From Candidatus Omnitrophota bacterium (GTDB lineage Bacteria > Omnitrophota > Gorgyraeia > Zapsychrales > JBDRMG01), in NCBI GenBank assembly GCA_043812495.1, contig JBDRMG010000065.1:2339-66338 (forward strand): a stretch of DNA of 64,000 nt, in the 5' to 3' direction. Position 1 is the stretch's first letter; each line of letters begins with the position of its first letter. Position numbers and translations under genes: made by a program. Shown here piece by piece: positions 1 through 24,000 of this stretch. The notes beneath the pieces were generated by a model that was not told the DNA's origin, did no database searches, and saw nothing but the letters and a program-made list of their open reading frames with translations.

Positions 1-3000
1 GCGCTAGGGGGTAAAATTCCAGGACACACCTTTAATGTCCTTCCGTTAGATAATGACAGCATCATAGCTATTGATTTCAAAAATCGGCAAATTAAAGTAA
101 TAGGCCCGAATAACCCCGTTGATTTTACTGATGATAGAATTACTTCCGGTGATGTTCTTATAGATACATCTCCTTATGATGATGTGATTTATGCTAGCGC
201 TTGGTACAACCGCGGTAATGCCCTTACTGAATTAGGCCGCTACGCAGAAGCCATTGCCTCCTATGACAGCGCCCTTATCTACAAGCCTGATGATGCCGGT
301 GCCTTGTACAACCGCGGTAATGCCCTTACTGACTTAGGCCGCGACGCAGAGGCCCTTGCCTCCTATGACAGGGCCATTACCTACAAGCCTGATGATGTCG
401 AGGCCTGGAATAACCGCGGCGTTGCCCTTTATTATTTAGGCCGCTACGCAGAGGCCATTGCCTCATATGACAGTGCCGTTACCCACAAGCCTGATGATGC
501 CATGGCCTGGAGTAACCGCGGCATTGCCCTTCATAACTTAGGCCGCTACCCAGAGGCTATTGCCTCATATGACAGTGCCGTTACCCACAAGCCTGATTAT
601 GCCATGGCCTGGAGTAATCGCGGCATTGCCCTTAATTACTTAGGCCGCTACCTAGAGTCCCTTGCCTCCTATGACAGCGCCATTACCTACAAGCCTGATT
701 ATGCCATGGCCTGGACCAATCGCGGCATTGCCCTTCATAACTTAGGCCGCTACCCAGAGGCTATTGCCTCATATGACAGCGCCCTTACCTACGAACCTGA
801 TTATGCCAGTGCCTGGAACAACCGCGATGTTGCTAATGACGCTGCGCTCAGATTGAATAAGGCACAAAATAACAATTTATTTAATATTGACTTCCGGCAG
901 TTATTGAGCTCGGCAGTGGTTGCCGGACTTGCCTTGGTTGCAATAAATAGCGGCTTTCAGCTTATCTCCGGAGCCGGATTTGGTTCAGAATTATTCCTGC
1001 CGGCTACTTTGTTTACCGCAGGCGTGGTATCCAAAAGTAGTCCTGAAGAATTGAAAGAGAAATTATTAGGCTTACTAGCCGAGATTAATGCCTCAGTAGA
1101 GAGCTTAAGGGAGTTAGCTGACAAAGGCCAGGCCAATGATTTAAGTTCGGTTTTAGAAGAGCTTAAGGAAAAGGCAGCCAAGGCAATCAGCGCAATTGTT
1201 AACGAAACAAATGGGAATGATAATCTTGATAGTGTATTAAGGCACGATTTAAGCAATGCTTTGAATTTGGCCGGCTATTTTGATGTCTTCTTAAGGAAAG
1301 AAACAGGCAAGCAGATTGCTTCTATAAAAAGCGCCCTGCCAATGATAGAAGAAGATTTAACAAAGGCTGAAGCTATTATTAGTAATCCAAGGTTATATTT
1401 AGCCAGAAAAACTGTTGTTTCAGAAAATGAGCTTACTAATAAAGCATTGAAGGTTATTAGCCTTACTGCTCTCACCTGGCTGGGGTTAAGCCTGGCCTCA
1501 AGCGTCTTTGCCGGCCAGGGTGGGGCCGCTCTTGAATATAATCCTTGGGTTGTAATTGGTTTGTCAGCCGGGCTTACCGGCTTAGGCCTATTAACAGCTC
1601 TTCCAAAGGTAAGGAATTTTGTGAAAGAACTTTTAAGAAAAATTACGCTATCCACAGTTTTGATAACTGTGTTATCTTCATTAGCAGCTTTTGGCATTTT
1701 ATATGCCATACCAGAAGGAGAGAATATTACAACGCCTCAATTTGAAGTGAAAAACACAGATGAAGCAATCGACAGCCTCTGTGCTTATGCTGTCAGGATG
1801 CATGAGGCAGGCTACGAGGGAGAACTAGGCGGAGTCGTGAAAAGAGAAGAAAACAGCCTTTCAATTTATGTTACGGACAAGGCAGAGCATTCAGTCAGCA
1901 CTCCTTTGCCGGAAGTTGATAATGAATTCATTTGGCACATTCATCCTGAGGCTGATTTAGGTAATATAGAGAATGCCGCAAGGAGCTTACAGGTTTCAAT
2001 AGAAGATTTAGACGGTTTGCTTCTAACCAGAGAGATTGACGGAAAGGCAGTTTCTCATAAGCAGAGCATAGTAATACTTTCTGCCGAAGACAGATATGCA
2101 GCTTCTTTGGTTAATGAGCCTGATAGCCTGGATATGATATTCAGGAATATGTTTTTAGAAGACGCAGAGTCATTCGGAGAGCTATTTACTTCACCCCTCT
2201 TACGTCAGGCGGCAAGGGATGTTAAATGGGTGGGTAATCCATTAGAAGACTTTATTGAAGAACATGCTTGTTCATGGCCATTGGCTGCCAATATAATCGG
2301 CATTAAGGCAAACGTATATTATCAGGAAGAGGGCAAGACAATCGAATATGATTATACGCTTGAGTTTAACAGGAATAATGAATTGCAGGAATTCAGAAAG
2401 GAATTTAACCTAAATCATCAACCGGTTAATCAAGGCAAGGCTCCAGCCAGTGTAATCTTGAACCTGATGTTTCTTGGGTTTGGCCTGGCAGCGGCAAAGG
2501 CAGGCTCGGCTAAAGCTGATGATGGCAAAGGGTTTGAATACATAGGTGAAGCAAGAGTAACGGGCGGAGCACAGTATAGCCCTGAAATATCTATGGCAAA
2601 GATAATGAAGGGCATGAGAATTGACGGGTTTGGTGAGATGCTTTTTATTCTTGTGTTAGGCGAATACAAAGCTACAAAATCATCATTTAAATTTATTAGG
2701 ATGATAACTGCGCAACGAGCTGACGAATTAGACACAGTGCCTGAGGATAGGTTCCATGCTCATATTGATTACAGAAAGAAATTAATAATGCCGAGAGAAT
2801 TATTTAGAGAATCCGGGATAAAATTTCAAGAGCAAGTTGTTTTCGTAAACGCTGGTTTTCCGGAAGGTGAATTACGCATTTATTCGAAAAGAGATTGGGA
2901 TAAATTGGTTGACTTAAAAGTAGTAACCTTAGCCGGTTTAGGCTTGGGAGTATTTTTATTAAACCAATTTGTTCCTTCGCTGACTAATCTTAATACCGGG

Positions 3001-6000
3001 GTAGCAGCCCAGGCAGATATGTTAACTGCGTTTATAGCACTGGGTATTTTAGCCTTAGCCGGTATTTGCGTTAAGCTTCTTGGTTACTTACGCGCCGGGC
3101 CGGTTGATTGGATTAAAAATATAGAACTTCCGCTTTTAACTGTTTGTGCCTTGGCATTTATAACCAGAGTCATTAATCTTAATTACAACGGCCCATTTAT
3201 TGATGAATCTTTCTATTCTGTAGCCAAAGATATAGGCAACGTCTTTTATATTACCGGCGAGGCTTATCTGTGGCCGGTTGTTTCCAATTTCGCTCATACA
3301 ATAGGCGGGGTGGTAGGGGCGCGCTTTGTAACGGCTTTATTTGGCACTTTGACAGCAGGGTTTGTCTATAAGGCCGCAGAAATTTTTGCAGTTAAATTTA
3401 ATGCTAAGGATAATAAGTACGTTGGTTGCTTAGCTGGTTTAATCTTTGCATTGTCTGCACCTGCATTGCTAACTAGCACTGTAGCAGGTTATGATGCCAT
3501 GGCCTTTATGCTCTATGCCTTTGGCTTCTGGCAATTGACTAAAGGACTGGAAACAAGCAGCAAAAAATCACTTTTAATTGCAGCGGCGGCATTGGCCATT
3601 TCTGCTGATACGAGGTATATGTTAATTGGCTTTTTACCCGTTGCAGTTATCTACGCTATTTATTCTAGCGTCTTCAACAAAAATAAATTAACCACATTAG
3701 CCTATTTCTTATTACCTTTAAGTATTTTAGCCGGAGGTTACGTATATCTAAATCATGAACATGTGTTTGCAGCCTTAAACCATGCCCGCAATTTAGGATT
3801 ATCATTAGCTAAGGCACAGACAATCAGCTATATATTGGCCAATATTCTTGTCAGGATTGCTCCAGTTATAGTGTTGGCCGGTATTGGCCTGGCAGTATAT
3901 TTAAACAAGGCAATCAGAGATAGATCTATAAGGCAGATAACAAATATTGCGTTCCTGGTTAGCGCAGCTGTAGTTATAGCCGCTTATCATATCTGTGCTG
4001 GCAATGATTTTACCTTGAATAGGAACTTAACAATGACTGTTATGTTTGGTTCTATCTTAGCCGGGTTAGGCTTAAATTATTTCATCAGCAATTTGAAGAG
4101 GGCGAAATACATAATTATAGGCCTGCTCTTATCAGTCTTACTTATCCAGGCGAAAACAGTCGTTAATAAAGACCAAGCCTGGCCGGATTGGAGACCGGTT
4201 GTTAGCAGCGTGCATGATTTAGATATACCAGCTTATTGTAATTGGCGTATTTGGTGTACGACGAATAATGGCGGAAATGTCTGGCAACTAAGGGCTGAAT
4301 TTGGCAAGAGGGTAGATGAAGCCTCTCCCTGGTATGCTGATAATCCCATGGATGTTTTAAAGCAGGCCTCAGGCAAACTTATTCCAGTAGTTGTTGGGCC
4401 AATACCAGGAACAGACCTTGATGTCGGAGATAAAATTTGTGGATATGTTGTAAGGCAAGTTGTTGTTATCCCTGGCTATTCGAAAATTTATATTCTTGAA
4501 TATCTATCTGTTTATGAGTCAGAACAGAGCGCTACGCAGCAATCACAGCCAATCACTCAGGTCACCACCAACACCACCTCCCCAGCCGAGAAGAAAGAAA
4601 CAGAAGGCACCAGCGTAGCTGCGGAGATTAGTCAACCCCACGTATACTTATTGCCCCACCTACATTTAGCGCCTTCCCAGAAGCGAGATGTATTGGACAA
4701 ATTAGAGCAATTAGAGAGAGCAATGGAACAATTTTCTACCCCTGCATCAGACTCTATCTTAATGTTTAAAGCAGACATTGAAAATATATTTGCCAGCAGC
4801 CGCGAGATACTTGCTCAATATAGCCGCGAGGCAGAAGCTATTAAACAAGTTGTCAATAATCCTGTTAACAAAATAAGACGCATCGGGGTAGAGGCTGATC
4901 AAGCATATGTTTATGATTTTCTGGAAGGCGCTCAATTTAAATTACACAATCTGGAAAGTATGATGCAGTGGGTGGGCTTTGAAGATTATAAACAAAAAGC
5001 CAAAGACCTTTTACTCGTTATTTATGGCCCTGTCTTTTATTTATACGTTACAGGATATGAGCCTATCGCATCAGATACTATAGAGATAATAGGGGTAGAA
5101 TCTAACGATTTAATGTTTAGTCATTCGGTAGTTTTTAGCTCATTGGTTAGGCATTACAATCAGGACCTGCCGCGTTCAGGAGCAATGCAGCCATTGCTAA
5201 ATTTGATCGAGAATATGTTGGGCGATAAAACGAAAATCCCTATGCAAAGCGAAATTGATAGTGCAATTTCTGCGGCGCGTAAAGACTCTACGCTTATAGC
5301 AAATTCACAGTTATGGTTAGTTCGAGACGTAAAAGGGTGTATAGAAGGTTTTATAGACATAGCAAATGAACGCGATGAGTTTGTTTTTTCAAAGATACAG
5401 GCTGATTCTACTAATATATTGATTGTGCGAGGGAGAGGGCATGAGTCAAAACTGCGGGAATTGTTTAAGGAAGGATTAATTGAGATAGATTCTCTCGATT
5501 CAGGGCCCTTGCATAAGGCAAATAATAAAGAATCCGGCTTTATCAATCCAGACAGCAGTCTGCAACTGAGCGAGAATCAATCTCAGCAGCCCTTCAAGCA
5601 GAGCTCACTACTACCTTTATTCTTACTCAGCCTTATCTCAGTAAGGCCAACGAGAAGACACCGCAGGAACTTTGCCGCAACCAGGGCAACTACAGGAGTC
5701 AGAAGAGAAGGTTACTTACGCGCCGGGCCGGTTAAGGGTTTGATTTTGAGCATCCTTTTTGCCGCAGCTTTATATATCTCGCCAGTTTTTTCCACCCCCG
5801 CATATTCAGATAATTCAGCAAACCAATCAGCTTACAGCGATACAGTCAAAGATGTGATTAAGAATATAAGAGACAGTTATTTTCCTTTTCCAAATAATGA
5901 TTCCATGGGGACAGTCAGGGAATTTGACGATTTAGACAATATCGCTTCCAACATAGATGCCTGGGCAGAGTTTATAAATTTCTGCACATGGATGTCTCAA

Positions 6001-9000
6001 AAAACAGAAGACGTGGAGGAAAAAGCCCTTTATGACTCCTTGGCCAGCGGAGTTATCAATTTCGCCATAGCTACACAAGATGAAAGAGGGGCTAATTTTA
6101 CGAGACGGCTGTTTATGCCGGCTTCGGCTTCCCAGCCTTATGATTTTAGAACAGGCTTTAATTCTAGCTTATGGTCTGCAATTGTCAACAATTACAGGCT
6201 TAATCCCAGAGAAAAGCTTTTAGAGCCTATGCAAAGTTTTACCCTTTGGCTTCTTGACCAACAGCAGACAGATACAGATACAGCTTATCAGGCAAGCTTA
6301 GGAGCGTTTAGCCGGGGAGATGTCTTTTATAATCCTGATAATCAATATGACCCTGAAGATGGGTATATTCCGCCCGCGGTCATAGATTCTCTTCATTATA
6401 CTGTTGTGGCTACCTCACGCGCTATGGGCTACATGGAGAATTATTACGGTATCATTCAATATACGGATACAGAGTTAGCCTTAGAAATCCAAGAGGCTAT
6501 CAAGCTGGCTAATAATTGGCTATTGACACAGTATCAGGACTATGGGATGTATGCCTTCTTTAATGTAGGCTGTGACCTCTACGGAAAGAACCTGCCTTTC
6601 GCTGGATTTCCGGATTTATTGTTAGAGTCTCAGGTCCTGCCTCTCTATGTATGGGATTATATAAGCTGGCTGGGAGTTGATTTGACTTCCTACAAGGGGG
6701 GCGTAGATTGGCTTATCGCCATATACGAGAAAGAGATAGAGTTTAACGCTAATAATATTAAAGGGTTTTCAAGAAATACATTTGGCGACCCTTCCCAGGA
6801 GAGCGTCGCTTCGCACAGCACTCTTATGGCAGCAGGGACGCTGGATTTATTAGGCGATAGCGCAGAGGCCTCATTTTACAGCAATGAAGTTAGCAAGTTA
6901 ATTACTGATGAGGGAGGAATAATATTTAGCGCAAGCAATGCCGGCAACCTGCCGTTTCCTTCCGACTATCATTATTCTTATGTCGTATCCGGCATCTGGT
7001 ATGTATATTCTGCCTTTGGCGTAAACGGCTTTAATCCTTTTGAGGTTGAGGATTCAATAATTACTCCTGAACAGCCGTTTATACTTCATCAAAATTATGC
7101 CAATCCGTTTGGAGGGGAAGGCACTACCATTGAGTATGAATTAAAGGAGCCTGTCAAAACAGTAGATATAGAAATCTTCAATATCCTGGGCCAGAAGGTT
7201 ATAGAATTCAGAGACTTGGAAAACGGGAAAGGAATTCACGAGATTAGATGGGATGGCAAGGACGGCAATGGAGAAGGCTCAGCCAGCGGTATTTACTTTT
7301 ACAGGTTAAAGGTTGACGGCCGCATAATAGAGTCAAAGAAGGCAATGTTGATTGGCGCAGCAGAAGATGATAATGCGCCGGTATACGGACAGGAAGAAAC
7401 TTCTCCAACCCTACCTCTTTTAGCTGGATTACTTCTGACTCCTGCGATTGTTACCAGAAGAAGAAAGACAGGCATTTTAAAGACTGCTGTTATGTTAGCC
7501 GGCCTTGGCTATGCCAAAGGCATTGGGTTTGTAAACGCCTTAGCAGAAATTATCCAGGCCAGATTCTTCCATAAACGAAGAGCCGCGCTGCGCAGGCTGG
7601 CTTCCAAGGCCGTCAGCAAAGGCGCTTTCGTGTATAACAAAATAGCTGAAAGGTTAAAGGAATTGCGGTCTCCTCGCTCTGTCGCTGCTGAAACAGAAAC
7701 AGCTCATTCCTCAGGTGAGGCTTTGACTTCATTGGCAGAAATCGAAAGAGCTATTCTTTCGGCTGAGGAAATCATCATTCAAGCTAAGAAACAAATAATA
7801 AAATGGGCGCTTGGCATGTCGATTCCTTTCCTATTTTTGCTTCAGGTATTACGCGCAGGTCTGACAAACGCGGACGCATATTATTTCTTCCCGACGAGAT
7901 ATATTTTAATTTTGGCTTCCCTGGCGGGACTTATCATGACGGCCGTGGGTGTTGCACGGCAAATCAGGAATTATAGAATTTTGCGTAGTCGCGAAAGGAT
8001 TGTCCGGGAATATAAAGGCATTATTGCGGAAAGCAAAAATTTACTTGCATCTCTTGAAAGAAACGGAGCGGGAGAAGGCGCCCAATCCGATGCCGACCAA
8101 ACTCTCCACGCCAACTTCATCACGCCAGAGATTATTGCGGTCATCGGGCTGATCCTTATGATTGCCGGAATTATGTATGCGCTGCGACTGTCAGGGACCT
8201 GTCCCGCTGGTTTTGCCAAAGGCAAAACTACCAGTGGGACAGGTCCCGAAGCCGCTATGAAGATAGCCTCGGGACCTGTCCCTGCTTTTCTGATTGTGAC
8301 GGGGATAACTTTGGCGGGGACGGGGATTTTAGCGAACAACAATCATCGCGACTTGCCGAGGACTTTCAAGAATTCAGCGGCAGGAAGGATGGGAATTTTA
8401 CCGAAATTTCCAAGGGACAACAGATGGCGGTCGCCGGATACGATACAATCAACCCCGCCTTCCCTGGCGGCATGGAGGAATTTATCATCCGAGGGGTCAG
8501 CTTTGACAATGGGATCCCTCCGGAGCGGTTCGACAAAGAACGCCTGGTCTTTGATTGTTTCCGCGATCTTCAGCACAGTGGCTTTTGGGATAATTTTCTC
8601 GAACTTGGGACGGTTGATCACTTCGACGAACTCATCAAAAATTCTGTCCGATAGGACCAGCGTAAATGTTTCCTGGGAGAGTTTATCGAGAATTTTGCCG
8701 CAATGGGAATACGGCTTCAGCAGGCCGGAAACAACAATGTTTGTGTCAACAACGGCCTTGAGCATATTGGTCTTGACGGTAGGCTTTTATTTCATCGTTA
8801 ATTTCTTTTTGAGAAACAAGATGTCTCCTAAGACGCTTGCGAATATCCTTAAAGATACCCTGCCATCTTTCGCGAAAGGTTTCGTTGTTAAGCTTGCGCG
8901 CCAATTTCAGCTTAAATCTCTTAGGCATGCGGTCAACGATTTTCTCGACCTCTTTTTCCGATATATTCATAGAATATTTAATCACGGTTTCTTCTCCTCC

Positions 9001-12000
9001 GATAAATTAAGTATAGTCGCTTTCTCTTGGCCTGTCAATAATTACTCCCCGGTTTCTAACCGCGATTCCCGCGAACTCCAGGCTAATTTCATCATGCCGG
9101 CCATAATGGCCGTCGCGGCGGTCGTATTGATCATGTACGGTATGATGGTAATAGCTGGCTTATTTAAGAATCAAATGCGCGCCTCTTCCATCCAGTGCCA
9201 GGGCCCGCCTAAAGGCGAGGCACGCCCGCCGGCGAAAACGAGAATTTCCCCCGCCCTAGCCATCCTCGCTCTTTCCGCTGTTCCTGCCTTCATCATTCTT
9301 TTCGCCGTCTTCTCCGAACACAGCCTTGCGTTTATGCCGGTCGCGTTGTCTGATATTGCTTTGCCGGGATTGATGGGAGTAATACGAATTACCTCCGCTA
9401 ATAAAAATGAAATCATTGCCGAAAACAATGGCATCACAGATCCCAATCTCATCTATCCGCAAGACACCATCCAGATGAAAGGATTTATTCTTCCGTTAGA
9501 TCTTTTAAGTCATCCTCTTGTCGTGTTATTGCTCATCGTTGCGGTTGCCGTTCTAAGCTTTAACAGAGTGCGCGAGAGACTCCTGACCATCGGACTTGGC
9601 GCTTTACTCCTATTCTCGGTGTATGCGCTCACGCCGTCCTATGACTCCTCTGATAAGACCTCAAGAATCCCGGCAGGATTGATACAGCAAATTCCGGATC
9701 ATTCAGGCATCCCGCAGGCAGGGCAACGCGCATCCGATTCCCCTGTTGTCAACGGAGCTACCGAAACTCCCCAAGAGGCCATTGTGTCTTATGTCATTAA
9801 ATCCGGCGACACCCTCACGGAAATCATCGAACGGGAACTCGGCGTCTCGGCCTATCGCCCGGTTGTCAATGGCCAGATGCCCTATGAAATCATTGCCGAA
9901 AACAATGGCATCACAGATCCCAATCTCATCTATCCGCAAGACACCATCCAGATGAGATCATTCCTTGGAGACATTTTCACGCCCGGGACCCTAGCGATCA
10001 TCGCCTTTGCTCTTATAGTTGCCGGAATTATATGTGTTTATCAACTCTTAAAAAACCGCGCGGCGGTTAAGGACATGCTTGAAACATCCCTGCAGCGCCA
10101 GGGCCCGCCCGCATCCGCCGTTCCAGCGCGAGCCGGGGTTCTCCCAGCTTCATCCAGAGGCGGACGCCGATGGCGACAGCCGAGACGACCGGTCATTTCG
10201 AGCGGATCTAGATGGGAAGTTTTCGCTTTTGCCGCATTGCTCATCGGGTTTATCTTCTTCTTTAAACCTTCGGCTGCCAAGGCTTCGGATTTTGTCGAAG
10301 ATCAAGATGGCAAGATCACCGCTGTTAACGTGGAATCCGGAGACACCTGGGGTCATATCACGCTTGATTATTACAAAACCCAAGGCCAAGGCGTTGGACA
10401 GCTCTGGGGACCGGACGGAAAGGCGTATACGCTTTGGAGTGAGGTTTATGGGCCAGGTTCAGATTATACAGATATGGATCACATAAGAACCGGCGAAACC
10501 ATTGATCTGACAGGACAGAGTCAAGAGGCAGGGGCAGCTAAATCTCCAACAAAATCCAAGAGTATACAGAAATCCGCAAGAGTCAAGAAGACCGAACCAA
10601 ACAAACAAAATCAGTCAAATCCAGCTAAATCACCTGTCAAATCCGCTCAACCAGAACCAGATTCAACGACAAAACCAGTGAAGAATTCTTCGGCCGGAAT
10701 TTCTCCGGATAGCTTGAAAGACAATTCGAAAATCCAATCTCAAGACAGCGCGAAGGCCGTTGATTCGACTCAAAACAAAAATGCCAATCTATCAAAAGAC
10801 AGCACAAAGGACAAATCATCTCAGAATAAAGGGTCCTCAAGCGGCAAGATCGGCGACGGACAATTTGTCTGGAAATTATTCGGCCCTATCGGAGCTGCTC
10901 TTCTCGCGATGATGGTCGCTGGAATCGCCTTTATTCTTCTTCGAGGCAGAAGCAAGGCAACGCCAAAACAAACAAAGAAAGAATCTGCAGCTACGCCTAA
11001 TGCCGGAGGAGAAAAGGCCGAAGACGTTCCTGGAGATACAGAAGAAGGTACGCCAATAGTTGAAGCTGCAGTTGTCGCTGGATCACAAGAAGCTTCCCAA
11101 ACAGTTGAGCCTGCGGACACGCAAGCCGTTGCTGCTGAAGGAACCGAAGTAAAACCCGAAGAGCCAGGCAATGGGTCTTCTGCTGAAGCTGAAGTTGTCG
11201 CTGGACCACAAGAAGATTCCCAAACAGTTGAGCCTTCGGACAATACTCAAGAAGAAAAACCACAAGCCGTTGTTTCTGAAGGAACCGAAGAAAAATCCGA
11301 AGGATCAGACAACGGGTCTTCTGCTGAAGCTGCAGTTGTTGCTGGATCACAAGAAGCTTCCCAAACAGTTGAGCCTGCGGACACGCAAGCCGTTGTTTCT
11401 GAAGGAACCGAAGTAAACTCCGAAGGATCAGACAACGGGTCTTCTGCTGAAGCTGAAGATTTCGTTGAGCAGGTACTGAATCATGACATTAGCGATCCCC
11501 TTAAGGATCAAAAAGGAAAGCAAGATGATGAACCTGGCGATGCCTCCGACACCCAAGGAGAGGAAACTTCTGGAATCGCTTCAGATGAACAAAACGCCGG
11601 AGATTTTCCGGTATCCGTTGAAGTTCGGGACGAAAAGAATACAGAAGCCGGAGTCCAGGGGCCTGGTCAGGAACCGGTTCGGGAACCGGCGTCTAGTGAT
11701 AATCCTGAAACCGGAGAACAGGACTATATTCCTTTGTGGATGATGGATGAGGATCCTCTCGGCGCAGTAGAGGATGGCTTCGAATTCCCAGAAGAAATAT
11801 CTGATTACACGGTCGAAGCACCGGACGCAACCGGAAAAATAGTCACATTCGCCTCCGGCCAAACATACTACATGGCCTATTACGATATGGAAACCGTCCT
11901 CTCGGACATGGCCACGCGGATTACCATAAAAGAGGACGGCAACGTCGTCGTTCGATTCGATGGAATAGGAAAATCTTATTTCTCGAAAGAACTATTTACC

Positions 12001-15000
12001 TGTTTTGAAGATGCCAGGAAAAGCTTGGAGAAAGTGAAATTGTTACAAGAAGTGGAAACGGAAGACAGAACCGGAGAAAAGAAAACATTCCGCCTTGGAC
12101 AAACGGTTTACTATCCGGGCCCGGAAAGAGATAAAATCGTATCCATAACTGTGGAACAGATACGGCAATATCCGGCGTTTATTCCTTGTTTTCACGAATT
12201 TAGGACCCGGACCAGGATCATCTCCCAGGGCGAAGCTTATCCCCCGATCCTGCTTTATACCGACCGCCAGGATGCGCAACAGGAAATCCTGACTTTATCA
12301 GAGGACGACAACGCCTTGGCTTTATTCGGCCATGACCTTGGCGGCATGAATCAAGCGCTGGCTGTTATCGTTGTCCTGGTCCTTGCGGCTTATGCCTATC
12401 GCTTCTTCAAAAACCGCGCGGCGGCGAAGGAAATACTTGAGACATCGGTTCAGCGCCAGGGCCCGCCTAAAGGCGAGGTAAATCCGCCGGCGGGAATAAA
12501 GATCTCCCCCGCCCTAACCGTCCTCACCCTCGCCGCCAGACTCCTCGTTCCCGCCGTTGCCCTTGTTCTTATCGCTAAAGAAATGGTCGAGCTTATATTA
12601 AACGGAACCTTCGGCAATCCGCAGGCCCTGATAGCCATAGTCGGCTTTGCGGGGTATCCTCAAAGATTTCACGTTGACCCAGAACAGGCATTATCAAAAA
12701 GCGAGAAGTTGAGAAAGCGCGTAGACGGTTTAATCGAAGAGAAACTATTGGACAAAGAAACGGCGGAAGCAGAATTTCAAAAACTCATCACAACGCGCAA
12801 TCTTCTCGGAAAGGCCAAGCGGCAGGAAAGAGGACAAGGAAACGAGGAAAAAGTGAACGCGCTGGAAAAAGAAATCTCACGCGTTAATGGATTAATCGCC
12901 CAGGTCAATAAATACAGGGGCCGCAGCAGAACCTATTTGCCGGATTCAAGAAACGAAAATAGCTCACTGCACGCGAATGCCTTATCGCCACTAGAAATTA
13001 CCCTTTTCGCCCTCATCCTCGCCCTTGCCGCGGCTGTATTATATCTGGCCCATCGATTCTTCAAAAACCGTAAAGTGCTTGATGCATCCATCCCGCGCCA
13101 GGGCCCGCCTATCGGCGAGGCACGCCCGCCGGCGAAAGCGAGAATTTCCCCCGCCCTGAAAATCCACACCGTTCTTCCCATCCTTAATTTTTATCAATCC
13201 GCCGCCGTACATATGCTTATAGATTTTGCATATTTATCTTATTGGCTGATTATCAAAGGGTTAATCAATATCGATGTGGTCTTGGGCATTGCCCATCTAA
13301 TCGGCAGAAATGAATATGATATACAGGATACAAGAAGCATGTTGCACGAACTTTGGTCCAAAATAAGAAACATCCGTTTTGTAACCACGAAGACGTATGA
13401 TCTCAGCAGGCTGAGCGAAGAAGGTCGAAGAATAATGGTAGATTTTGCTTTAGCCAACCAAGATACAAAAGTTCTGGATATCCGGTATCAAGCCTTATTA
13501 AAAACCCACCCTGCAGAAAATGATAATAAGACGACGACGCCTCCCCAAGGCGGCGGGTTAGGATTGTCAAAGATTGCCGGCATGTTTGTGAATCACCAAA
13601 TATCCTTAAGGCGGGCCTTTGCATTGGCGAAGAGAGATTACGCGGGCGGACTTAAATACTCCACCAAAGCCAACCTTGTTGCGGAAATCATCAAAACCAT
13701 TATCAAGAAAACAAGTCAAAAAGCCGCCGGCCTCATCCGCGGGCCGACATCCTGCGCTACAGCGCCAACTGGCACTTTAACCTCTAAAATCTATACTATC
13801 ATCCTCACGCCTGAGTCTGTCGCGGCCATCGGGCTGCTCCTTATGATTGCCGGGATTACTTATGGGTATAAATTATTAGGGACAGGTCCCTCTGGTAGTT
13901 TTGCCTTTGGCAAAATTAGCGGGACAGGTCCCGAAGCCGCTATGAAGATAGCCTCGGGACCTGTCCCTGTTCTTCTTTCTCTGGCCGCTATCGCCATCCT
14001 GATTCCCGTCTTCATCATTTTCGCCTCCCCACCCGAACATATTTTTGCGCTTATGCCGGTGATGGCTCTCGGGCAGATTGTTTCAAATGACAGAAAAGAA
14101 AGCGTATGGATCATTCCTCTTAGACCCGGCTGTCCCGTAAAGTTCAACATGAACAAAAAACAATTATTTGTTCAGGCAGGCGGTTTTCTCTTTACTTTTA
14201 TTCAGTATACCATCGAGAGGACCATTCAATATAGCTCCATGCTTCATCGTCCTCAGGAGGGAGGTTGGCAAGTCTGGGTTCCGTTGATCCCCATAGGAGA
14301 GACCATCCATGTGGGCGGTAGAATCCAAGAGGAATATCCCACTAACATGGTAACGCCCGTTTCGGATAAGACTGTCTCAAGTAGACATTTGGCCGTAACG
14401 ATTACGCCAGAGGGGTTGGCGCAATTAACAGACCTTGGGTCTGAAAACGGAACCTTCATCCATGCTAGAGCTGAAGAGGTCTCGGACCTTGTGGATATAT
14501 CGCCGGAGGCGGTGCTTGAAATCTTGAGACCATCAATGCGTCCGGAGTTGCAGCAAATAAGCGTGCTTGTGGAACTTTTCAGAATCAGAAAACTCGATGA
14601 ATATAAGGAGTGGTCTGCCCAGGGCGAAGACTCAGATGAAGACTCCGCGCATGCCTTGGTTGTATTGCCCGGAGAGAGTATGCTCTTGATTCTTGCCATG
14701 ATACCTCTTGTGATTCTGGCCATGATGATTCTGGAAATGATTCCCTCATCCAGACAGCATCATCCTGAGCCTGACACAACACGCCATGACCGCGAATCCG
14801 CCACCTTCGGTTCTTCTGTTGCCGCAAAAATCCAACAAGATATCGAAGCCATGCATGCCCGCAACCAACGCTCACGAGAGCAAGCCCATGACTCGGTGCG
14901 CAGCCTGATCGCACCAGATCCAGCATTGCTTCCGATCCTCATTGCTTTATTCGCTGTTATGACTTTCCTCATGTCACGTGACCTTAAATCCGCTACCTTT

Positions 15001-18000
15001 GGCTCCAAAGAACTTGAAAAAATGCATCAAGCCCGTGAAAAGGTCTTTGACTATGATGAGGAGTCACGAGAGCAAGCCCATAAATCTGTGCGCTCTGGAT
15101 CAGGACAGACCGCCTACGGCTTTGTGACGGGGGTCTCTTTATCACTGGGAGTTTTGGTTTTTGCCATTTTGACACTCATCGTCATTCGCGCCTCCATCAA
15201 GAGGGTAAATGAAGGTAAATTGGGCAAAGGAACAGCGCTTTCTGTTTACCTCCTTCTGGCAGGCCTGACCTTCGTTCTGGGCATCCTAGGGATCCGGCAA
15301 TTCATACCGGATTCGGAAGAAAGAACAGAACGCTATTATAATCTCAAAGTCGGCCAAAAGCCGGAAGAAATTGACCCCACCTTGGTTCATGAGGACCAGG
15401 CGGCTATTCTCACCCAAGGAAGACACGCCGAGACAAGCAATGTTTGGTACAACATGTGCAAGGTCATTGTTGCCATTGACACGACAAACCAAACGGTTGT
15501 GTTTGGTCATCTGACGCCTTGGATTGGCGATAACGGCCTGGAGAAAACGCCGCAGGAATATCAAGCTTTAATCGATAACTTAAAAGATGTTATGGAGTCC
15601 GAAGGTATTATTCAGAAGAATCTTGTCATCTATCTTGTGGCTAATCACAACACGGATATTACTTTGCTTGAGGAAATGCTCAAAGAATCTTTCCCGGGCC
15701 GGATCCGCAAGGTGATTTCGCCTTTTGACAATCAAAGAGAAATTTATGTTGCCGTCTCCAATGAAGAAGAGGGAATAGAAGTAACATCCGTTGGGCAAGA
15801 AGACAATGTTCCCAATAAAGTATTAGTCATAGATCCTCACACCGGACGGATTATTGAAGAAAGGGACGGGGCTTGGTATATGCTTTATCTTTATATAAGC
15901 GCCGGATTGGCAGCCTATTACTTATTTGGCCATGGCGGTCTTTCTGCTATTGAAAGCCGGTCAAGAAGACGGAAAAGACAATCAACAGCTGATAGGGACC
16001 GATTATATCACGGCCTTGTTTTCCCCTGTCTCACAGGCACCATCATCGAGATGGCCGCGGTGGTCCTTCTAGCTGGGCTTGGGGTTTGGGCGGCCCAAAG
16101 AAGAAGGTCTAGTAGGCTGATTGATTCGGAGAATGGAAACAAGGAAACAGAACTTGACGGAGAAGAGTTCGTAGCCGCTCAGTTCTATCGACTCTACGGC
16201 GCTGACAAGATTAAAGATTTTAGCCCGGCATTCACCATTTCTGAGGCGAAACGCTTACTGGAAGCCGGCTTAGATGACATGGTGCAAAATCTTTACAAGC
16301 AGTATGGGGAAATTATACCTCCGGAAATTAATGCTCCTGAATTACGAGAATTGGTCCGCGGAATCCCTGAAGATCAGCTAACCTTTAAGAACGTGGCCCA
16401 AGCCTTTTCTGGTTATTTAAGAAAGAAATATGATCTTTATAGCAGAGGCAAAATGGACCGCGCTGCAATTATGGATCTGGGTGAGCAGGAGAAAAATATT
16501 CTTCGGTATGTCTTTAGATTATTCAGCGACAATATCCAATACGACCATCAGGGCGCAGACGGCCAATGGAAATCAATACTTTCCCATGCCATCGAAGGCA
16601 ATCCGTACATTGAAGGTAGGCCGCGTACCTATATCTGCGAAACAGCATGCGCTTTGGCCATAATGGCCCTGGAAGAAATAGGCTTAGGAGCAACGCCGGA
16701 TAAAAAACCCTCTAAAATCGGCATCCACAAAAACTTTAAAGGAATAGACATGAGCCAGGGCGGCCATGTGGCTGTTTTATGGAAAACCGTTAATGACGCC
16801 GGTATTTTTGATCTGACGCAGGGACTGGTAGATCATGATGGGCGCTCTTGCCTGGCGAACATAGACATCAATCATGAAGTTCTCAAAATCAAGCAAGCTA
16901 ACGGTCAAGAGCGATTCGTTCGCTATGGCAGCAAAAAAGATTTAGAGCCCATTCAAGGTGAGACCTTTAAAGATCTTCTCGAAGACGAAAGAGTTTGGGC
17001 CAAATACCATGATTTGACTAATAGGAACAATGCAATTGATTTTCACGCGTCTGACAAAGGCAGCATTTTGCTGCAGTCACAGAAAATTTTTAAGGAAGCA
17101 GATGCTTTAAGTAATCTTCCGGTCGTTCGTCGAGATCCGATATTAAGTGAAAATCTGAAGAATCTCAAAGCCACTGCTCAGGCTAACATACAAAGTCTCA
17201 ATAGATCTGATCGAATGAGGAATGCGTACGAAGCCCTGAAGCGACACACAGACACTTTAAACCGAATTCATCGAGTATCCAATGGGAACCATGAGCTTGC
17301 TGAAAAATCCTACACAAAACTAGCGCAAGATATAAAAGACACAATCGCTTCGCTTTCAGCCGACTCAAGGTTTATAGGAGCCACCGCAAATGATGTCAAT
17401 TTCAGATTAATAGCAGTCGACGCATACGGAAATAAGCGCGAGCGAAAAGTCGGTGGTCAGGGAATCATTGACGTCCTTGAAGATCTTAAGAAAGATGCCC
17501 AAGAACATGCTTTGATAAGCTGTTATTTCTCTAGATTTAAAAAAGCAAACGCGAGATTCCAACAAGGAGAAGACGTATTTCCAGATCCAAAGGCCGGGAG
17601 TAATTTCCAAGCGGCTTTAAGCCAATATATTTCTCTTGAGAGAGAAATTAAGAAAACTCTGCGGACCCCGGGCATTTCCAATCCAAGCATTATTCAAAAC
17701 CTAGAGAGCCTACAAGATACCATCGCTGCAAATAAAGATGCCGCAGCCGATAACATAAAAACGCTTGGCCAAACTCCACAAATGGAATCATCCCTCGGTC
17801 TCATCCTCCCCGGCGTGACAGGCACCATTATCGATGTACTCGTAGTCGCCCTGCTCCTGGCCGGGCTTGGGGTTTTGGCGGTTCAAAGAAAATGGTTTTC
17901 GAAACTAGGGGATAGGATTAGCAATGAGCGTTTAGCGTTTAGCGTAGAGCGTATAGTTAGAAATACTAAACGCTATACGCTATCTCCTATCTCCTATCTC

Positions 18001-21000
18001 CTATCCGCTATCCGCTATCCGCTATCCGCTGTCTGCTATCTCCTATCCGCTCCACGCTATGCGCTCTACGCTACTCTTCTCATAGCGGCCGTTGTTTTAG
18101 GCGGCTCGACCGCTTTTGGCTTGAGTTTTGCGATCATGCCGTTTTTGGCATCCATACGCTCGGAGGATTCTGATCCGGACCGGGAATCCCAGACGACGCA
18201 CGTCTCGATGATCCTTTCTCAGCAAGATGAGGACTTCGTTCTTGCTATCGGAGAACAATCTTTCAGAATACAAAAGAATTTAATAAAACAGGAATTTGCG
18301 GCTATTACTCAGAACGGAAAACAGATACAAGACGCGAACGTCAGACTCACCATGCACAATCTCCTTGCGTTTAATTATTTCTTCTGGCTGTATCAGCAAA
18401 AACAGAAAATAGCCAAAGGATCCGCTGATTTTATGGGCGATCTTTATGCGCGCCTAAGCATTACGTATGACCAGAAACGCGTTATTGTCCGTTACGCTTA
18501 TGGGGACGCGCCGCTTGAAGACCAGAGCGAGCATGCCTGGAGTTATGGGTTTGAGATTAACCGTGCCACCGGAGGCTATAAAGCCGAGATTCAGGACAAA
18601 GGCCTCGAGGCATATGAGAAAAACATGCTTTTTAACCGGTATGTCGAATATTTCTTAAGCATTTTAGCGACAGTCCACCGCGTTTTGGATCCAGCGACAG
18701 AGAAAGAAATGATGAGGCTTCTAGAAAAGGCATATTCTTCGAATGATTTCACAGGGTTTTATCGCCGCATTCCCGGCGAACCGGAAATCGAAGAAAAGAA
18801 AGGCGATAGCGGTCGACCAAACCTTACTTTCGGCGGTCTCATTCTCCCTGGTCTCACAGGAACCATCATCGAGGTACTCGTAGTCGCCCTGCTTCTGGCC
18901 GGGCTGGGGGTGTTGGCCCAGAAGAGAGGATGGTCCCGACGCTTTCTGAATAAAACAATTAAGGTAGTCGGGATCCCGACTTCAACAATTTCATTTAAGA
19001 GAACGTCGGGATTCCGCAGGCTGACTAATTCAGAGAACAGAAACCAAAGCACAGAAACCAAAGAAAAGAAAACCTCACCCTACTCCTCCGCCAAAAAGAA
19101 ATTCAGCAAAGCCTTCCCACTCATTGTTATTCTCATAGCCGGTGCTTTGGTGGTAATGTTTATGGATATGCGCGCTGATGTTTATGCATCTGATGATGTT
19201 AAATCTTCAGCCTTAACAATGATCCATATTCTCATAGCCACCACAGCCTTTATACTCTTGCCTTCCTTGTTGCGCTTGCTTGGATATGACAAATGGGCTG
19301 CGCGCTTAGAAAAAGTCTCTTTTGTCGGAATATTTGTGGGCCTTGTTGGACTTATGTCTGCTTCAATTTTTGTCCCCGCCCAGGCCCAGGCGCAGACAAA
19401 TCCGTTCAACACATTCTCTCCCGATGAGCCGGATGATGACGGAAATAATGGTCTTTATGGGGATGACGAGACCAGCAGTCTTCCAGCGACATTTATAACA
19501 CAAGATTATTTATTAGATTTGATTCAAAATGCTGAATGGGGAGTTAAAATATTTACAGAAGATCAATGGAATAATAATGAAGATTTAAAGGGTTGTGAAT
19601 ATCATTATGGAGGCGCTGTTGGTGTTCCTGCGACTCAAACAATGTATTATGCCGGTACCATCGCATCCACAGGGCATTTGTCTCATGAGACAACGCATGT
19701 TCTTCAATCATCCTTAACTCAGGAAGAGCTTCTGGAAGCCTATGACGGATTAGCGGGAGTTATCAGAAACCAAGAGGCTAAAGACATTCTAAGTAAATTA
19801 ATGGATGCTTATTTAACGACCTACAATAAACTTCTAATAGAGTGGGTAAACAGCCAAAACCTTCTTACCGATGAAGAAAAGAAGACGATATTGAAATCCA
19901 ATGGAGCTGATGAGACGTTTGCTCTTCTCTTTGGCATGTTTGTGGGAGCTTGCCAGCCAAGCGAATCGAATCTGGCGACCTGCCATCTTGATGAATACGG
20001 AGTGGCCAGACTGACTGAAATTTTATTGGAAAGCGAAGAAGAGAACGAAGCAAGAGAATATCTTGCTCGTTACTATAGAGATTTAGGTTACGATGAGAAT
20101 TTGGTTAATAACTTATTGCAGACAAACGGTACCCAATTAGGGGCGAATAGCTCAATAGAGCCAGAAGCTTCTTTAACTATCTGTGACTGGTTTATGCCAG
20201 GAGTGGTAGTTGGTGCGGAGGCAACTTCTGCCCCTGCCCAGGCGCAGGATATTATGCCAGTCTCTGGAGAAAAAACAGATACTGATTCAGATTCGACTAA
20301 GAACGATAATCGAAATTTTAAAACAAATCTACTTAATACTTTAAGAAGAATTGGCAGTTCGGCTTATGAAAAACCAAAACCTTATCAGGTGGCGCTAAAT
20401 AATCACCACGGGAGCGCAGATCAAAGCTTAAGAACAGAAACGAGTTCATTGAATCCAAGCGATCGCTATTGTGTAATAAAACAAAACAGAGCTCTTTCTA
20501 TTAATAACCAAATGCAAAAACCTCCTCTTCTTATGCCAGATAGTATTGTAACATTCCAGAATCTTGAAGAAGCGAAAGACTATGATATTCCAGAAGGCTG
20601 GCCCTATGCTGTCTTGCAGTTCAAAGAATGGCCTATTTATTACATTAAATTTATTGATAATTTCATACAAGGATTGGCTTTTGACCGGATGGTTTATTAT
20701 GTCGAAGTAGAGCCAGGCGTTCTTTTATTTGATCGTGAACTAAGAGCGAAAGAACAAGATATGAAAACATTTGGCGAGGGAGGACGTGATTTTCACTTAA
20801 ACGATGTAGTCGCATTCTATAATGAAACCAAGAACAAAAATTGCCCATTGAATATCATGGAGTTCAGATTGCTCGCGGAGTTTATAAATGCAGGTTTGAT
20901 CCTTCGAACAGAAAATGGATACCAACCAGCTATGGAAGCGGCTATTATGAGCACTGATTTGTTAGGAGAAGAGCAAGCGCTTAAGCAGGAATTTGATCAT

Positions 21001-24000
21001 ATGGTTTATTTTATCGATGAACAATATAGGCAAGCGGCTGATAGTCTTTATCTGGCGTTTTCTGAAGAAGACCGCCAATTTGCCGTAGACGTTGTGACCG
21101 CACTCTTTATTTATAATGATCAAAATCCAAATCTTATGGCCAGAGAAGTGGCGGGTTTCTTTAGAGAACCATGGGATCTCATCTATAACAATTTAATCCA
21201 CGTTGACACATCTCTTGCCGCGGATTCCTCAAGAATATATCAATTGGGCGAACAGGTAATTTCTCTTGAAGACCAGAGCGAAATATATAGAGATCTTGGC
21301 AGACAACAAAGATTGCTTGGATATAAGAACCTTGTGGCGCAGCTGCCGGAAAAGACAAAGCGTAATTTCCTAAAGGGCGTTAACGAGATGCAGCTCATGA
21401 CGAGAAAGCCATCCCCTTGCTTAGGCCTCATCCTCCCTGGCGTGACGGGGACCTTGATTGAGGTGCTTGCGTTATTGGCTATCGCTGGACTTGGGATTAT
21501 ATGGATTTATCGAAACTGGTTTGCTCTGAAAAATGTTTATAGCCGAATTTCTAATAGAATTCTTAGTGTGGTCCTAGGGCCGTTGGCGCAAGGAAAGGAT
21601 CATCCGTGGTCCCGACGCTCCGACCATAGGTCGGAGGTCGGGACTCCGACTTCCACAATTTCATATGGGGAAACGTCGGAGCTGTCACAAAGAAATCATT
21701 CGTCGACTGGAGACCAGATAACAGTTTACAGAAACCAGAATAGGCCGTTGGTGCCAGTCGTTCCTTCCGTGGCAGGAATTTCGACTGTTACGCCAACGGC
21801 CTCTTCTTTATTTGTTATGCGAAATAGAATAAACGGAATTTACTTAACAGCTTCGAGGTGGGTCAGCCGCTTGCCGAAATCTTCCTTGATGGTTCTAATA
21901 TCCTCTTCCATTTTAGCAAGCTTGCCGTTTATTTTTGTCAGCTCCTCTTTCATGAATGAGGAACGAAGGCTTATCGTTGTGATATCTTCCGCGTTTCTAG
22001 CCACCATTCCCATTGTGGCGTCCAATTTATCCCGTAAAATGCTCTGGCCTTCTGCAATCGCTCTCATGTCCGTATGGATCTTCTCAAGCACGACTGCAAA
22101 TTCCCTGTCTTTGGAGAATTCCTTCAATGGCTTTGTTGTCTTATTGCCTTTGATCTTCATGATGGCGCTTATTTTAATCCAGCACAAAAATATTGTCAAG
22201 AGTATTCTATCGGTAATGAGTCGTGATTCACAAAAAGATCTTTATCGACGATGGACAAAGGGCGTCTCACGTCTCGCGTCTAACGTCTCACATCCTACGT
22301 CTCGCGTCCTTCGTAAAATTTTCAGCGGCTCAGCCCAAACGACCCTCTCATCTCCTTCTTCGCTGAAAGGCTTGCGCGTTCAGCTTCGAAGGACAAGCGT
22401 GGCTTCAAAAACTAATCAACCATTAGAAAAGATTTTCAGCAGCTCAACTGATGCAGCCCCATCTACCGTGCGCCGGCCTTCCTTTGATATTAAGCCTGAG
22501 GAAGCCGGCATCCCGACTTCCACGAATCAAAATCTCGGCAGAAGGCAGAATCGTAATAACCAATCTTCATTTTCCGTGGCTGGTGAGGAAAATTGGGGTC
22601 CTTCTGCCAAGATTTTATCAGGAAAAATCGGGACTGGTGAGAAGGTTGTTCAAGTTGCGCAAAAGGACAGGGTCCGAGGTGCCCCCCTCCGCACTTCGGG
22701 CTCTGTCCGTAGTCCTTTGGCTGCTTCGGTCGTCATGAGCGTGGCAACACCCGCGACGGGCCTCGAAACAAACTCATGGTGGTTTAGTCCGATCTTCGAC
22801 GGGATCCCATTGACGCCTTATATCATTATCGTCAGTATTCTTCTTTTATTGTTTCTTACCTCTCCAGCTTGGCTATTATGGCCGATAAAATCGGCACGAT
22901 CTAAAATTCCGGATCATGTTGAATGGAAACGATTAAGCCGCAAAGATAAACGAATCGGCGTTGAAGACCTTGAGCGCTTCTTGAATCATCCTGACGGTGT
23001 AGTAATAGATATTAGGACCGACATGTCAGGGAAACAAATGGCGGAAATGCTCAATGAAAGATTTTCCGCGGTCCACACTCCCTACCGAAGAGGTTTTGCC
23101 GCACTTTACGACCGTATCATTCGGACGATTTTGAAACAGGTTTTGCCACAGCAGCCTCTCTTACCAACATCCTCCCCCCAAGATGAAATAACCGCGATTT
23201 ACAATATAGTTTCCAAAATTGCCTCCCCTCTTTCTGAAGAGGAAAAGAGAGAAATTGCCTTTAGGGTTTTGAAAGAAGCTAAAGCGGATATCAAAAGACA
23301 GGTTGAATCACCCGCAAAGTCAGACATCTTTTCTAAACTCAAGGCCATGATGTTTATCATGGCCGGTATCGTAGCTTTCGGGTCATCCAGCCTCTTCGGG
23401 GCCCAACAAGGACCCTTCCCCTTGGAAGGTTCCGCGATCCCCCATAGTTTCGCCTCTGGCGAAACTGTCATGGGGAATCCCGACTTCCTTAATATTGATT
23501 TAGGAAACGTCGGGACAACCGCGGCAGACACAGTTGCGCAAGCTGCAGCAGGTCTATCGGACATCACAACAATCGGATTGATTATTTTGGCCGTTCTTGC
23601 TGTTGGTGTTATGGGAGTAGTGATTTCCGTGAGAATGCCAATCAAATCCCATGTTGCCGAATCAAAGGCATGGAAGTTTATTCGCACCCACTACAAAAGC
23701 ATTCTTGGGATGGCGGCGGTTGTGACCATCGGGATTTTGGCCTGGCAATTCAAGCCATGGGTAGAGCTATTGGCTGCTTTTGGCGCTTCCAATTGGATGA
23801 TCAAAGCCTTCAACTATGTGGTGGCGGCTAATGTGGCCATGTTCTTAGTTCTTACTTTTGAGAAATGGAAATCCGAATACCAAAGAGTTAATCCTTTCAC
23901 CTTGACAAGAGAAGAGATCATAACCGAGCTTATGGAAAGATATAAGGCAAAAGACACGTCACGGCCGTGTCCCGCGGGCACGGAAGGAATGATCGCGGAT

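Follow-up and report, generated by a model that had tools for sequence, protein, structure and literature searches.

A VapBC-like toxin-antitoxin operon nested antisense in a giant open reading frame of an Omnitrophota bacterium

The window analysed here comprises 64,000 nucleotides (nt) of contig JBDRMG010000065.1 (positions 2,339 to 66,338, forward strand, assembly GCA_043812495.1) from a Candidatus Omnitrophota bacterium, and is spanned from end to end by a single plus-strand open reading frame (ORF). At 8343-9038 the minus strand carries a toxin-antitoxin (TA) operon of the VapBC kind, preceded by its own promoter. The preferred reading, held jointly at a probability of about 0.8, is that this operon is real and lies antisense in an ORF of more than 64 kb, that the giant frame reads through it and is kept free of stops, and that the lineage of the operon recurs nested in other long ORFs. 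The main features are the following.

8343-8765, minus strand: PIN_3 (VapC-like) toxin gene, 140 amino acids (aa), assigned by profile match and conserved acidic residues
8746-8985, minus strand: antitoxin gene, 79 aa, GTG start and TGA stop, assigned by its ORF and by homology to the partners of related PIN genes
9000-8996, minus strand: Shine-Dalgarno site GGAGG, 10 nt before the antitoxin GTG
9038-9010, minus strand: sigma-70-type promoter, TTGACA (9038-9033), 17-nt spacer and TATACT (9015-9010), 11/12 consensus matches
1-64000, plus strand: host giant ORF in frame +1, open at both window ends, at least 21,333 codons
8341-9039, plus strand: read-through segment of the giant ORF, aa 2781-3013 (about 233 aa), antisense of the TA cassette

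Results

The toxin gene

The 140-aa protein matches PF13470 with 78 bits (curated cut-off 27, 1.2e-21) over profile positions 1-115 of 115, and TIGR00305 over its full length with 61 bits (cut-off 29, 1e-16), so that the PIN toxin proposed in a sequence-only reading of this DNA is confirmed by two profiles well above their curated cut-offs. Residues D7, E45, D90, D93 and D112 occupy columns of the homologue alignment that are invariant or nearly so. The AlphaFold2 model has a mean predicted local distance difference score (pLDDT) of 91.7, and its best folds in the PDB are VapC proteins from M. tuberculosis, Pyrococcus, Salmonella and Shigella (probability 1.0, TM score about 0.62-0.67). Sequence searches of the PDB with the PIN protein and with a PIN profile gave no significant match. 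The protein index contains 57 homologues of about 135-150 aa, the closest one being 45% identical, and the stand-alone ones are found in ordinary two-gene operons with an antitoxin gene of 81-107 aa ahead. Exact look-up of the PIN protein and of the 79-aa protein returned no record, which is expected if gene callers take the giant ORF instead. A PADLOC scan gave no match to a defence system. The 140-aa protein is thus a predicted full-length PIN_3 toxin in which the catalytic acidic residues are all kept.

The antitoxin gene and the operon signals

The toxin ATG lies 20 nt inside the antitoxin gene, the overlap of the two ORFs being 20 nt. The antitoxin is 30-43% identical over its full length to its counterparts in three other loci described below (L016, L021 and L022), and shares 28% identity over 47 aa with the antitoxin encoded beside the best stand-alone PIN homologue. 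The GTG start agrees with the alignment of the nested partners. The sequence-only reading had placed the PIN gene and its GTG-started partner at 8343-8765 and 8746-8985, with a GGAGG and a TTGACA-N17-TATACT promoter upstream, and all these elements are present. Its further suggestion of an antitoxin family held in part: the match to VapB15 (NF047401) is weak (5.8e-6, 26 bits) and below the cut-off of 80, whereas the homology to the partners of related PIN genes is clear.

The TTGACA-N17-TATACT site is the top promoter-like site within 7500-10000, and the operon at 8343-9038 is probably expressed, to judge from these signals. The toxin gene has no Shine-Dalgarno site of its own and starts inside the antitoxin gene, and for this reason it is probably translationally coupled. 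With these properties the predicted operon fits among the ordinary VapBC-like modules of the PIN_3 subgroup, albeit as a divergent one.

The giant frame across the cassette

Frame +1 contains no stop in its 21,333 codons, as had been noted earlier for the stretch over the cassette, whereas frames +2 and +3 have about 8-9 stops each inside the 700 nt that the cassette occupies. Outside the cassette the giant ORF resembles a genuine protein of the type encoded by Omnitrophota giant genes, with TPR, PMT_2, FlgD_ig, LysM, FHA and M23 domains (Pfam) and 77 transmembrane (TM)-like segments (hydropathy scan). As in the giant genes reported from this phylum (10.1101/2023.11.21.568195; 10.64898/2026.06.07.730766), an ORF of more than 64 kb is combined with many TM segments and with sparse domains related to the cell wall (LysM and M23). 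SecA-like domains have also been reported for those genes (10.1101/2023.11.21.568195; 10.64898/2026.06.07.730766); none was matched in the first 10,000 aa of this ORF.

In a scan of codon-usage log-likelihood trained on frame +1, this frame scored best in 419 of 425 sliding windows and was outscored at exactly two places, 8251-8850 and 21601-22200. In the first of these the top score goes to the PIN frame or to frame +3, its codon-aligned shadow. Over the PIN half of the cassette the log-likelihood of frame +1 is at or below 0, and the PIN frame reaches +8 to +11 per 30 codons; in the half that holds the antitoxin gene, scores are positive, as for coding sequence, on the two strands alike.

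The read-through segment is rich in Ser (13.7% vs 6.4% in the whole ORF) and Phe (9.0% vs 4.2%), low in Glu (1.7% vs 7.0%) and also poor in Asp, Tyr and Gln. Over the toxin gene, positions one and two of a host codon are reverse-complementary to positions one and two of a toxin codon: Lys and Asn codons give Phe and Leu, and Glu and Asp codons give Ser. A Ser/Phe-rich, acid-poor composition is therefore expected for the antisense of a protein rich in Lys, Glu and Asp. The translation had been described beforehand as compositionally odd and of low complexity: the odd composition is borne out, the low complexity not really. Two TM-like stretches (aa 2848-2866 and 2919-2937) were identified in the segment by hydropathy scan. 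Pfam and NCBIfam gave no match in it, nor did Pfam in the frame +1 translation of 7801-9600, and it is related only to the corresponding segments, antisense to TA genes, in other long ORFs.

The poor codon usage of frame +1 over the PIN half could also mean that the giant frame is not translated across the cassette, so that the window would hold two or more genes or a pseudo-ORF whose openness is incidental or an assembly artefact. Chance openness at one locus is not astronomically unlikely. Against this stand the absence of stops in 21,333 codons and the recurrence of openness in independent assemblies, at six loci for the TA cassette, at nine for a coiled-coil gene and across a DUF5615 toxin gene in locus L018 (these are described below). 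Moreover, since no stop codon intervenes, ribosomes coming from the upstream part must run on. No group I or II intron RNA, other Rfam family or tRNA was found in the window (Rfam and tRNA scans), and Pfam identified no in-frame intein domain in the translation of 7801-9600. An untranslated frame is considered highly improbable.

Nine other long minus-strand ORFs in the window were dismissed as genes, having no Pfam match and an antisense-like composition. Elsewhere in the giant ORF, a 79-nt direct repeat (9407-9485 and 9884-9962, 96% identical), coding for the LysM-like peptide EIIAENNGITDPNLIYPQDTIQM, looks like a recent internal duplication.

Phase geometry and the missing stops

In the toxin gene third codon positions face third positions of host frame +1, and the antitoxin gene is codon-aligned antisense to the same frame. 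A stop in the host frame would need, in the toxin gene, a Tyr codon preceded by one with T or C in third position, or a His or Gln codon preceded by one with T in that position; in the antitoxin gene it would need a TTA, CTA or TCA codon. When both protein sequences were fixed and their synonymous codons resampled with the codon usage of the giant ORF, 4.0 stops were expected, with a probability of 0.008 of obtaining none. The conservative alternative, permutation of the synonymous codons of the TA genes themselves, gave a probability of 0.107. In stand-alone relatives this phase contains one stop across the toxin gene and 1-3 across the antitoxin gene. The resampling and the stand-alone stops together imply that this phase is almost free of stops in a natural cassette and that the last few are missing here. 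Read-through is thus possible because the cassette lies in the most permissive phase and because the about 2-4 stops of a normal cassette are absent. Both strands are open across the whole overlap beyond chance, in the window as well as in five more loci. The proposal that frame +1 is constrained here only to stay open is accordingly supported by the resampling value, by the stops of the stand-alone relatives and by the five further loci.

The same wobble-on-wobble phase, in which conserving one frame largely conserves the other, might make the minus-strand ORFs mere shadows of a conserved segment of the giant protein. This is effectively refuted by the full-length PIN_3 match and by the stand-alone homologues in ordinary two-gene operons. 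In addition, the codon usage of the minus frame beats that of frame +1, and promoter, Shine-Dalgarno site and start/stop architecture all belong to the operon itself. A shadow origin can be practically discarded.

Recurrence in other long open frames

The same TA family was identified antisense, in the same phase and with zero host-frame stops, in five further long open frames (L016 and L021-L024). The first, L016, belongs to a metagenome-assembled genome (MAG) of Candidatus Omnitrophota, with an opposite-strand frame open across all 13.8 kb retrieved. It was reached through the second nested gene of the window, independently of the TA genes, and the codon-usage scan then exposed its cassette. 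This comprises a 79-aa antitoxin (30% identical to that of the window) and a 135-aa PIN_3 toxin (43% identical; PF13470, 1.3e-20), with TTGACA-N17-TATATT and GGAGG signals. The L016 cassette is bracketed by a 43-nt direct repeat (984-1026 and 1800-1842, 93% identical) whose copies lie 816 nt apart (3x272) and which occurs nowhere else in the 13.8-kb locus. The repeat resembles the trace left by an in-frame insertion or duplication.

The other four loci were retrieved with the frame +1 translation of the insert as query against a representative library of 1.84 billion proteins, a query chosen because gene callers do not see nested genes. Matches over about 200 aa, with E-values down to 1e-20, came from six long proteins (440-2399 aa). 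All four of the loci that were looked up (L021-L024) have an antitoxin-PIN pair on the opposite strand, as checked at the DNA level. Their host frames are open for 5.6-8.0 kb, which is the whole contig in L023 and L024, and the cassettes show the same phase and zero host stops, with a chance of 0.002-0.045 per locus.

The antitoxin-first overlapping layout is also found in L016, L021-L024 and the stand-alone locus L001. The promoters of L021 and L022 read TTGACT/TTGACA-N17-TATCTT/TATATT, and Shine-Dalgarno sites (GGAGG, GGGG or GGAG) occupy the equivalent place in L016, L021 and L022. A near-consensus promoter with a Shine-Dalgarno site is thus present in the four cassettes examined (window, L016, L021 and L022). 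Among themselves the nested antitoxins share 30-49% identity over the full length, but they show only 28-33% identity over 36-47 aa to the stand-alone partner in L001, with one of them giving no match. By homology and arrangement the window cassette is assigned to a TA lineage that recurs nested in other long or giant ORFs.

In L021 (1-7200) the host ORF of at least 2399 aa contains RelA_SpoT and acetyltransferase domains, and a 2799-aa ORF with PEP-utilizers_C begins 22 nt after it. These host domains indicate that nesting is not limited to TM-rich giant genes.

Nested genes can decay under an open host frame, as illustrated by the coiled-coil copy of L018, which is in two pieces. The TA cassette could likewise be a dead relic, inserted recently, with ORFs that chance has so far kept intact but with neither expression nor toxicity left. 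However, divergence to 41-53% identity in the toxin and 30-49% in the antitoxin (full length) has left the two ORFs and the overlap between them intact in six copies, the catalytic residues are retained in the copies checked (window and L016), and promoter and Shine-Dalgarno site are kept in all four cassettes just listed. A relic is therefore very unlikely. Neither a frameshift nor a nonsense change interrupts the minus-strand genes, and genes and promoter are intact in the copies examined.

The site of the cassette

The cassette is placed between two repeat units of the host protein, with palindromes on the toxin side.

8104-8313, plus strand: host repeat unit A, TM hairpin with GTGP/SGPVP loop, aa 2702-2771, abutting the 3' end of the TA genes
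9076-9309, plus strand: host repeat unit B, of the same family as unit A, TM hairpin with QGPPKGE...ISPAL loop
8194-8282: three GGGACCTGTCCC/GGGACAGGTCCC palindromes that fold into strong hairpins, 60-150 nt past the PIN stop

Unit A has a paralogue at 13789-13998 (aa 4597-4666, 59% identical). Its homology ends at aa 2771 (nt 8313) by BLASTP and fades at about 8300-8335 in DNA alignments, before the PIN stop. Unit B starts about 40 nt past the TA promoter. The earlier suggestion that a real antisense operon occupies a linker of the giant ORF is supported.

The minus-strand RNA of 8345-8180 has a fold energy of -67.9 kcal/mol (z = -5.3). The GGGACCTGTCCC and GGGACAGGTCCC palindromes code for GTCP, GTGP and SGPVP in the TM-hairpin repeat unit and are also present at 13878-13968, with about 55 nt identical between the two copies. 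A terminator borne by the cassette was therefore rejected, the hairpins being part of the host repeat unit, although they could incidentally terminate the TA transcript. An 'SSP[LVA]' linker motif that appeared to flank cassettes in other hosts was also dropped, not being found in the giant protein of the window.

At about 7111-7480 on the plus strand (aa 2371-2495) a FlgD_ig/CHU_C (type IX secretion-like) domain is followed by a hydrophobic stretch ending in TRRRK, and a similar RRHRR anchor is found near aa 1885. Such features, typical of C-termini and placed here in mid-ORF, suggest that the giant ORF is a chain of formerly separate proteins. The G+C content steps near the cassette from about 0.40-0.44 (1001-8000) to about 0.46-0.50 (8001-19000), a possible mosaic junction.

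From these data it can be asked whether the TA operon once lay between two plus-strand genes that became one giant ORF by stop loss and read-through. The C-terminal-looking segment about 900 nt before the TA genes and the nearby G+C step, from about 0.41-0.44 ahead of the cassette to 0.48-0.50 past it, speak for this origin, as does the fact that only about 4 stops would have to be removed. However, the direct repeat of L016 with its in-frame spacing looks like insertion or duplication, host repeat units of one family are found on both sides of the window cassette, and intermediates with stops would have split the gene. Fusion is for these reasons a doubtful origin, though one to be taken seriously.

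A second nested gene and its relatives

The window contains a further antisense gene.

21840-22160, minus strand: coding sequence of the second nested gene, 106 aa, coiled-coil, without Pfam family; with its promoter it extends to 22199

The promoter comprises TTGACA (22199-22194), a 17-nt spacer and TAAAAT (22176-22171). The ATG lies 10 nt after the -10 box, and the predicted mRNA therefore looks leaderless. Upstream of this promoter, at about 22262-22330 on the minus strand, four copies of GAGACG(T) occur within about 50 nt, in a segment oddly composed in frame +1; they could be an operator or a repeat.

With respect to frame +1, the coiled-coil gene and the PIN gene share one phase. Its homologues, of about 102 aa and 54-72% identity, were identified antisense in eight other loci (L011-L018), mostly from Omnitrophota MAGs, with frames open across the retrieved loci, up to 20.3 kb. 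Every nested copy shows zero host stops, and the coiled-coil segment is essentially the only part that those giant ORFs share with that of the window. In one lineage (P0061, loci L007-L010) the gene stands alone after an alanine racemase gene and has one stop in that antisense phase. The stand-alone lineage indicates that the coiled-coil gene is real and not a shadow of the giant frame.

In L018, an Omnitrophica WOR_2 MAG, a DUF5615 PIN-like toxin (PF18480, 5e-20) is nested antisense at 9300-9662 on the plus strand. The coiled-coil copy of the same locus (8352-8732, plus strand) is split into two ORF pieces, with the host frame still open. Extra coiled-coil paralogues are nested in the same giant ORFs in L013 (2153-2509) and L017 (1658-2035), one of them with an internal tandem expansion of (IVTMKTD)n.

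These relatives lead to the question of whether the nested TA operon and the second gene are kept because they serve the giant gene, either as a guard against deletion between repeats or by setting its expression through head-on transcription and duplexes of sense with antisense RNA. The TA family is found in six long ORFs with conserved promoters, the cassette lies between paralogous repeat units able to recombine, and the second gene is the only segment common to otherwise unrelated giant ORFs. Nevertheless, neither the position nor the synteny of the nested genes is conserved with respect to host domains, L016 has the TA and coiled-coil genes in reversed order, and the host flanks are unrelated between loci. 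A service to the giant gene is thus regarded as unlikely.

Discussion

Comparison with known systems

The operon resembles type II TA systems of the VapBC family in its antitoxin-first overlapping bicistronic layout, in the PIN-fold toxin of about 140 aa with its acidic residues, and in the promoter directly upstream. It differs in that the toxin is only 10-18% identical to solved VapC proteins and in that the whole window operon lies antisense inside another ORF; the antitoxin is also unlike those of VapBC, as discussed below.

Antisense embedded genes are known from other bacteria, such as ano in E. coli O157:H7 and the long overlapping genes of Pseudomonas aeruginosa (PMC5960689, PMC8850804). 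The published embedded ORFs are mostly young, without family and located inside old, conserved and well-folded genes (PMC7457138, PMC5960689, PMC8850804). The window shares with them the opposite-strand ORFs over the same DNA and the promoter-like and Shine-Dalgarno-like signals of the embedded partner. In contrast to them, the embedded pair is old and domain-bearing and forms a two-gene operon of about 640 nt, the host frame is the one that carries nondescript sequence, and the arrangement recurs in several genomes.

TA modules of superintegrons and genomic islands stabilise large stretches of dispensable DNA, since loss of the segment would free the stable toxin. A compact promoter-plus-TA cassette among recombination-prone repeats is common to these modules and to the window. 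Here, however, neither attC nor integrase was seen, the cassette lies within a coding frame instead of between cassettes, and stabilisation would be by analogy.

The words 'antisense', 'nested' and 'opposite strand' do not occur in the text of the two reports on Omnitrophota giant genes (10.1101/2023.11.21.568195; 10.64898/2026.06.07.730766), and nothing comparable was found in the literature on nested TA modules. Recurrent frame-preserving nesting within giant ORFs appears not to have been described so far.

Points that weigh against a translated-through, recurrent TA operon

Several observations count against the preferred reading. For the window cassette alone the chance probability of an open frame is modest, whether taken from resampling or from permutation. 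The antitoxin has no recognised DNA-binding domain of the AbrB, RHH, Phd or HTH type (no match in Pfam), as VapBC antitoxins would have, and a profile of four nested antitoxins against the PDB gave nothing significant, leaving it without a structural relative by sequence; nor was an operator for autoregulation of the promoter identified. The insert query detects only copies in an open host frame and in the same phase, so that the phase and openness of L021-L024 are partly due to how these loci were found; L016 and the window are unaffected by this bias. At the site itself, the window cassette has no flanking direct repeat (none >15 nt), and four upstream and four downstream flanks share only the promoter and the gene ends, with no conserved termini or inverted repeats. 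The marks of a mobile cassette, which are flanking direct repeats or conserved termini, are thus lacking from the window cassette. Finally, no close orthologue of the giant-protein stretch aa 2501-3400 was found in an index of 5.8 billion proteins or in the GTDB genomes, JGI metagenomes gave only LysM fragments for the same stretch, and no empty-site allele of the cassette was present in the collections searched.

Possible origin of the arrangement and its consequences

Under the reading of a real operon in a frame that is kept open, the giant frame would turn the antisense of the cassette into a Ser/Phe-rich spacer of about 233 aa, selected only for its lack of stops. The host would tolerate these additional residues between TM-hairpin units, and selection on the host would purge stops from the cassette. 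The cassette, in turn, would persist because in its phase the host is not truncated. By analogy with VapBC systems the antitoxin is expected to bind and neutralise the PIN ribonuclease, and the TA module may be a selfish or addictive passenger. As a side effect, loss of the segment would release the stable toxin, so that deleting this part of the giant gene would carry a penalty. The expression of the giant gene could also be depressed by head-on transcription and by the complementary mRNA.

A broader and tentative proposal, held at less than even odds, is that giant ORFs of Omnitrophota and their relatives are a habitat for genes that tolerate being read through. These would comprise the PIN_3/antitoxin lineage, the DUF5615 toxin and the coiled-coil gene of 102-106 aa, all free of stops on one antisense phase, and some of them may be kept for protecting the giant gene, through addiction that penalises internal deletions, or for regulating it, through head-on antisense transcription. 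If true, the proposal would add a new mode of nesting to those known for bacterial genes and a new constraint on keeping 100-kb genes intact.

Antisense nesting in bacteria is contested and has usually been argued from short ORFs without family. In the arrangement described here the embedded genes are unmistakable and it is the host frame that is featureless. Giant frames that are kept free of stops even across foreign genes give indirect evidence of their translation from end to end. Since standard gene callers hide nested genes, TA and other small genes are under-counted in these genomes. Nesting also gives a concrete way into the question of how genes of 60-400 kb withstand decay and deletion.

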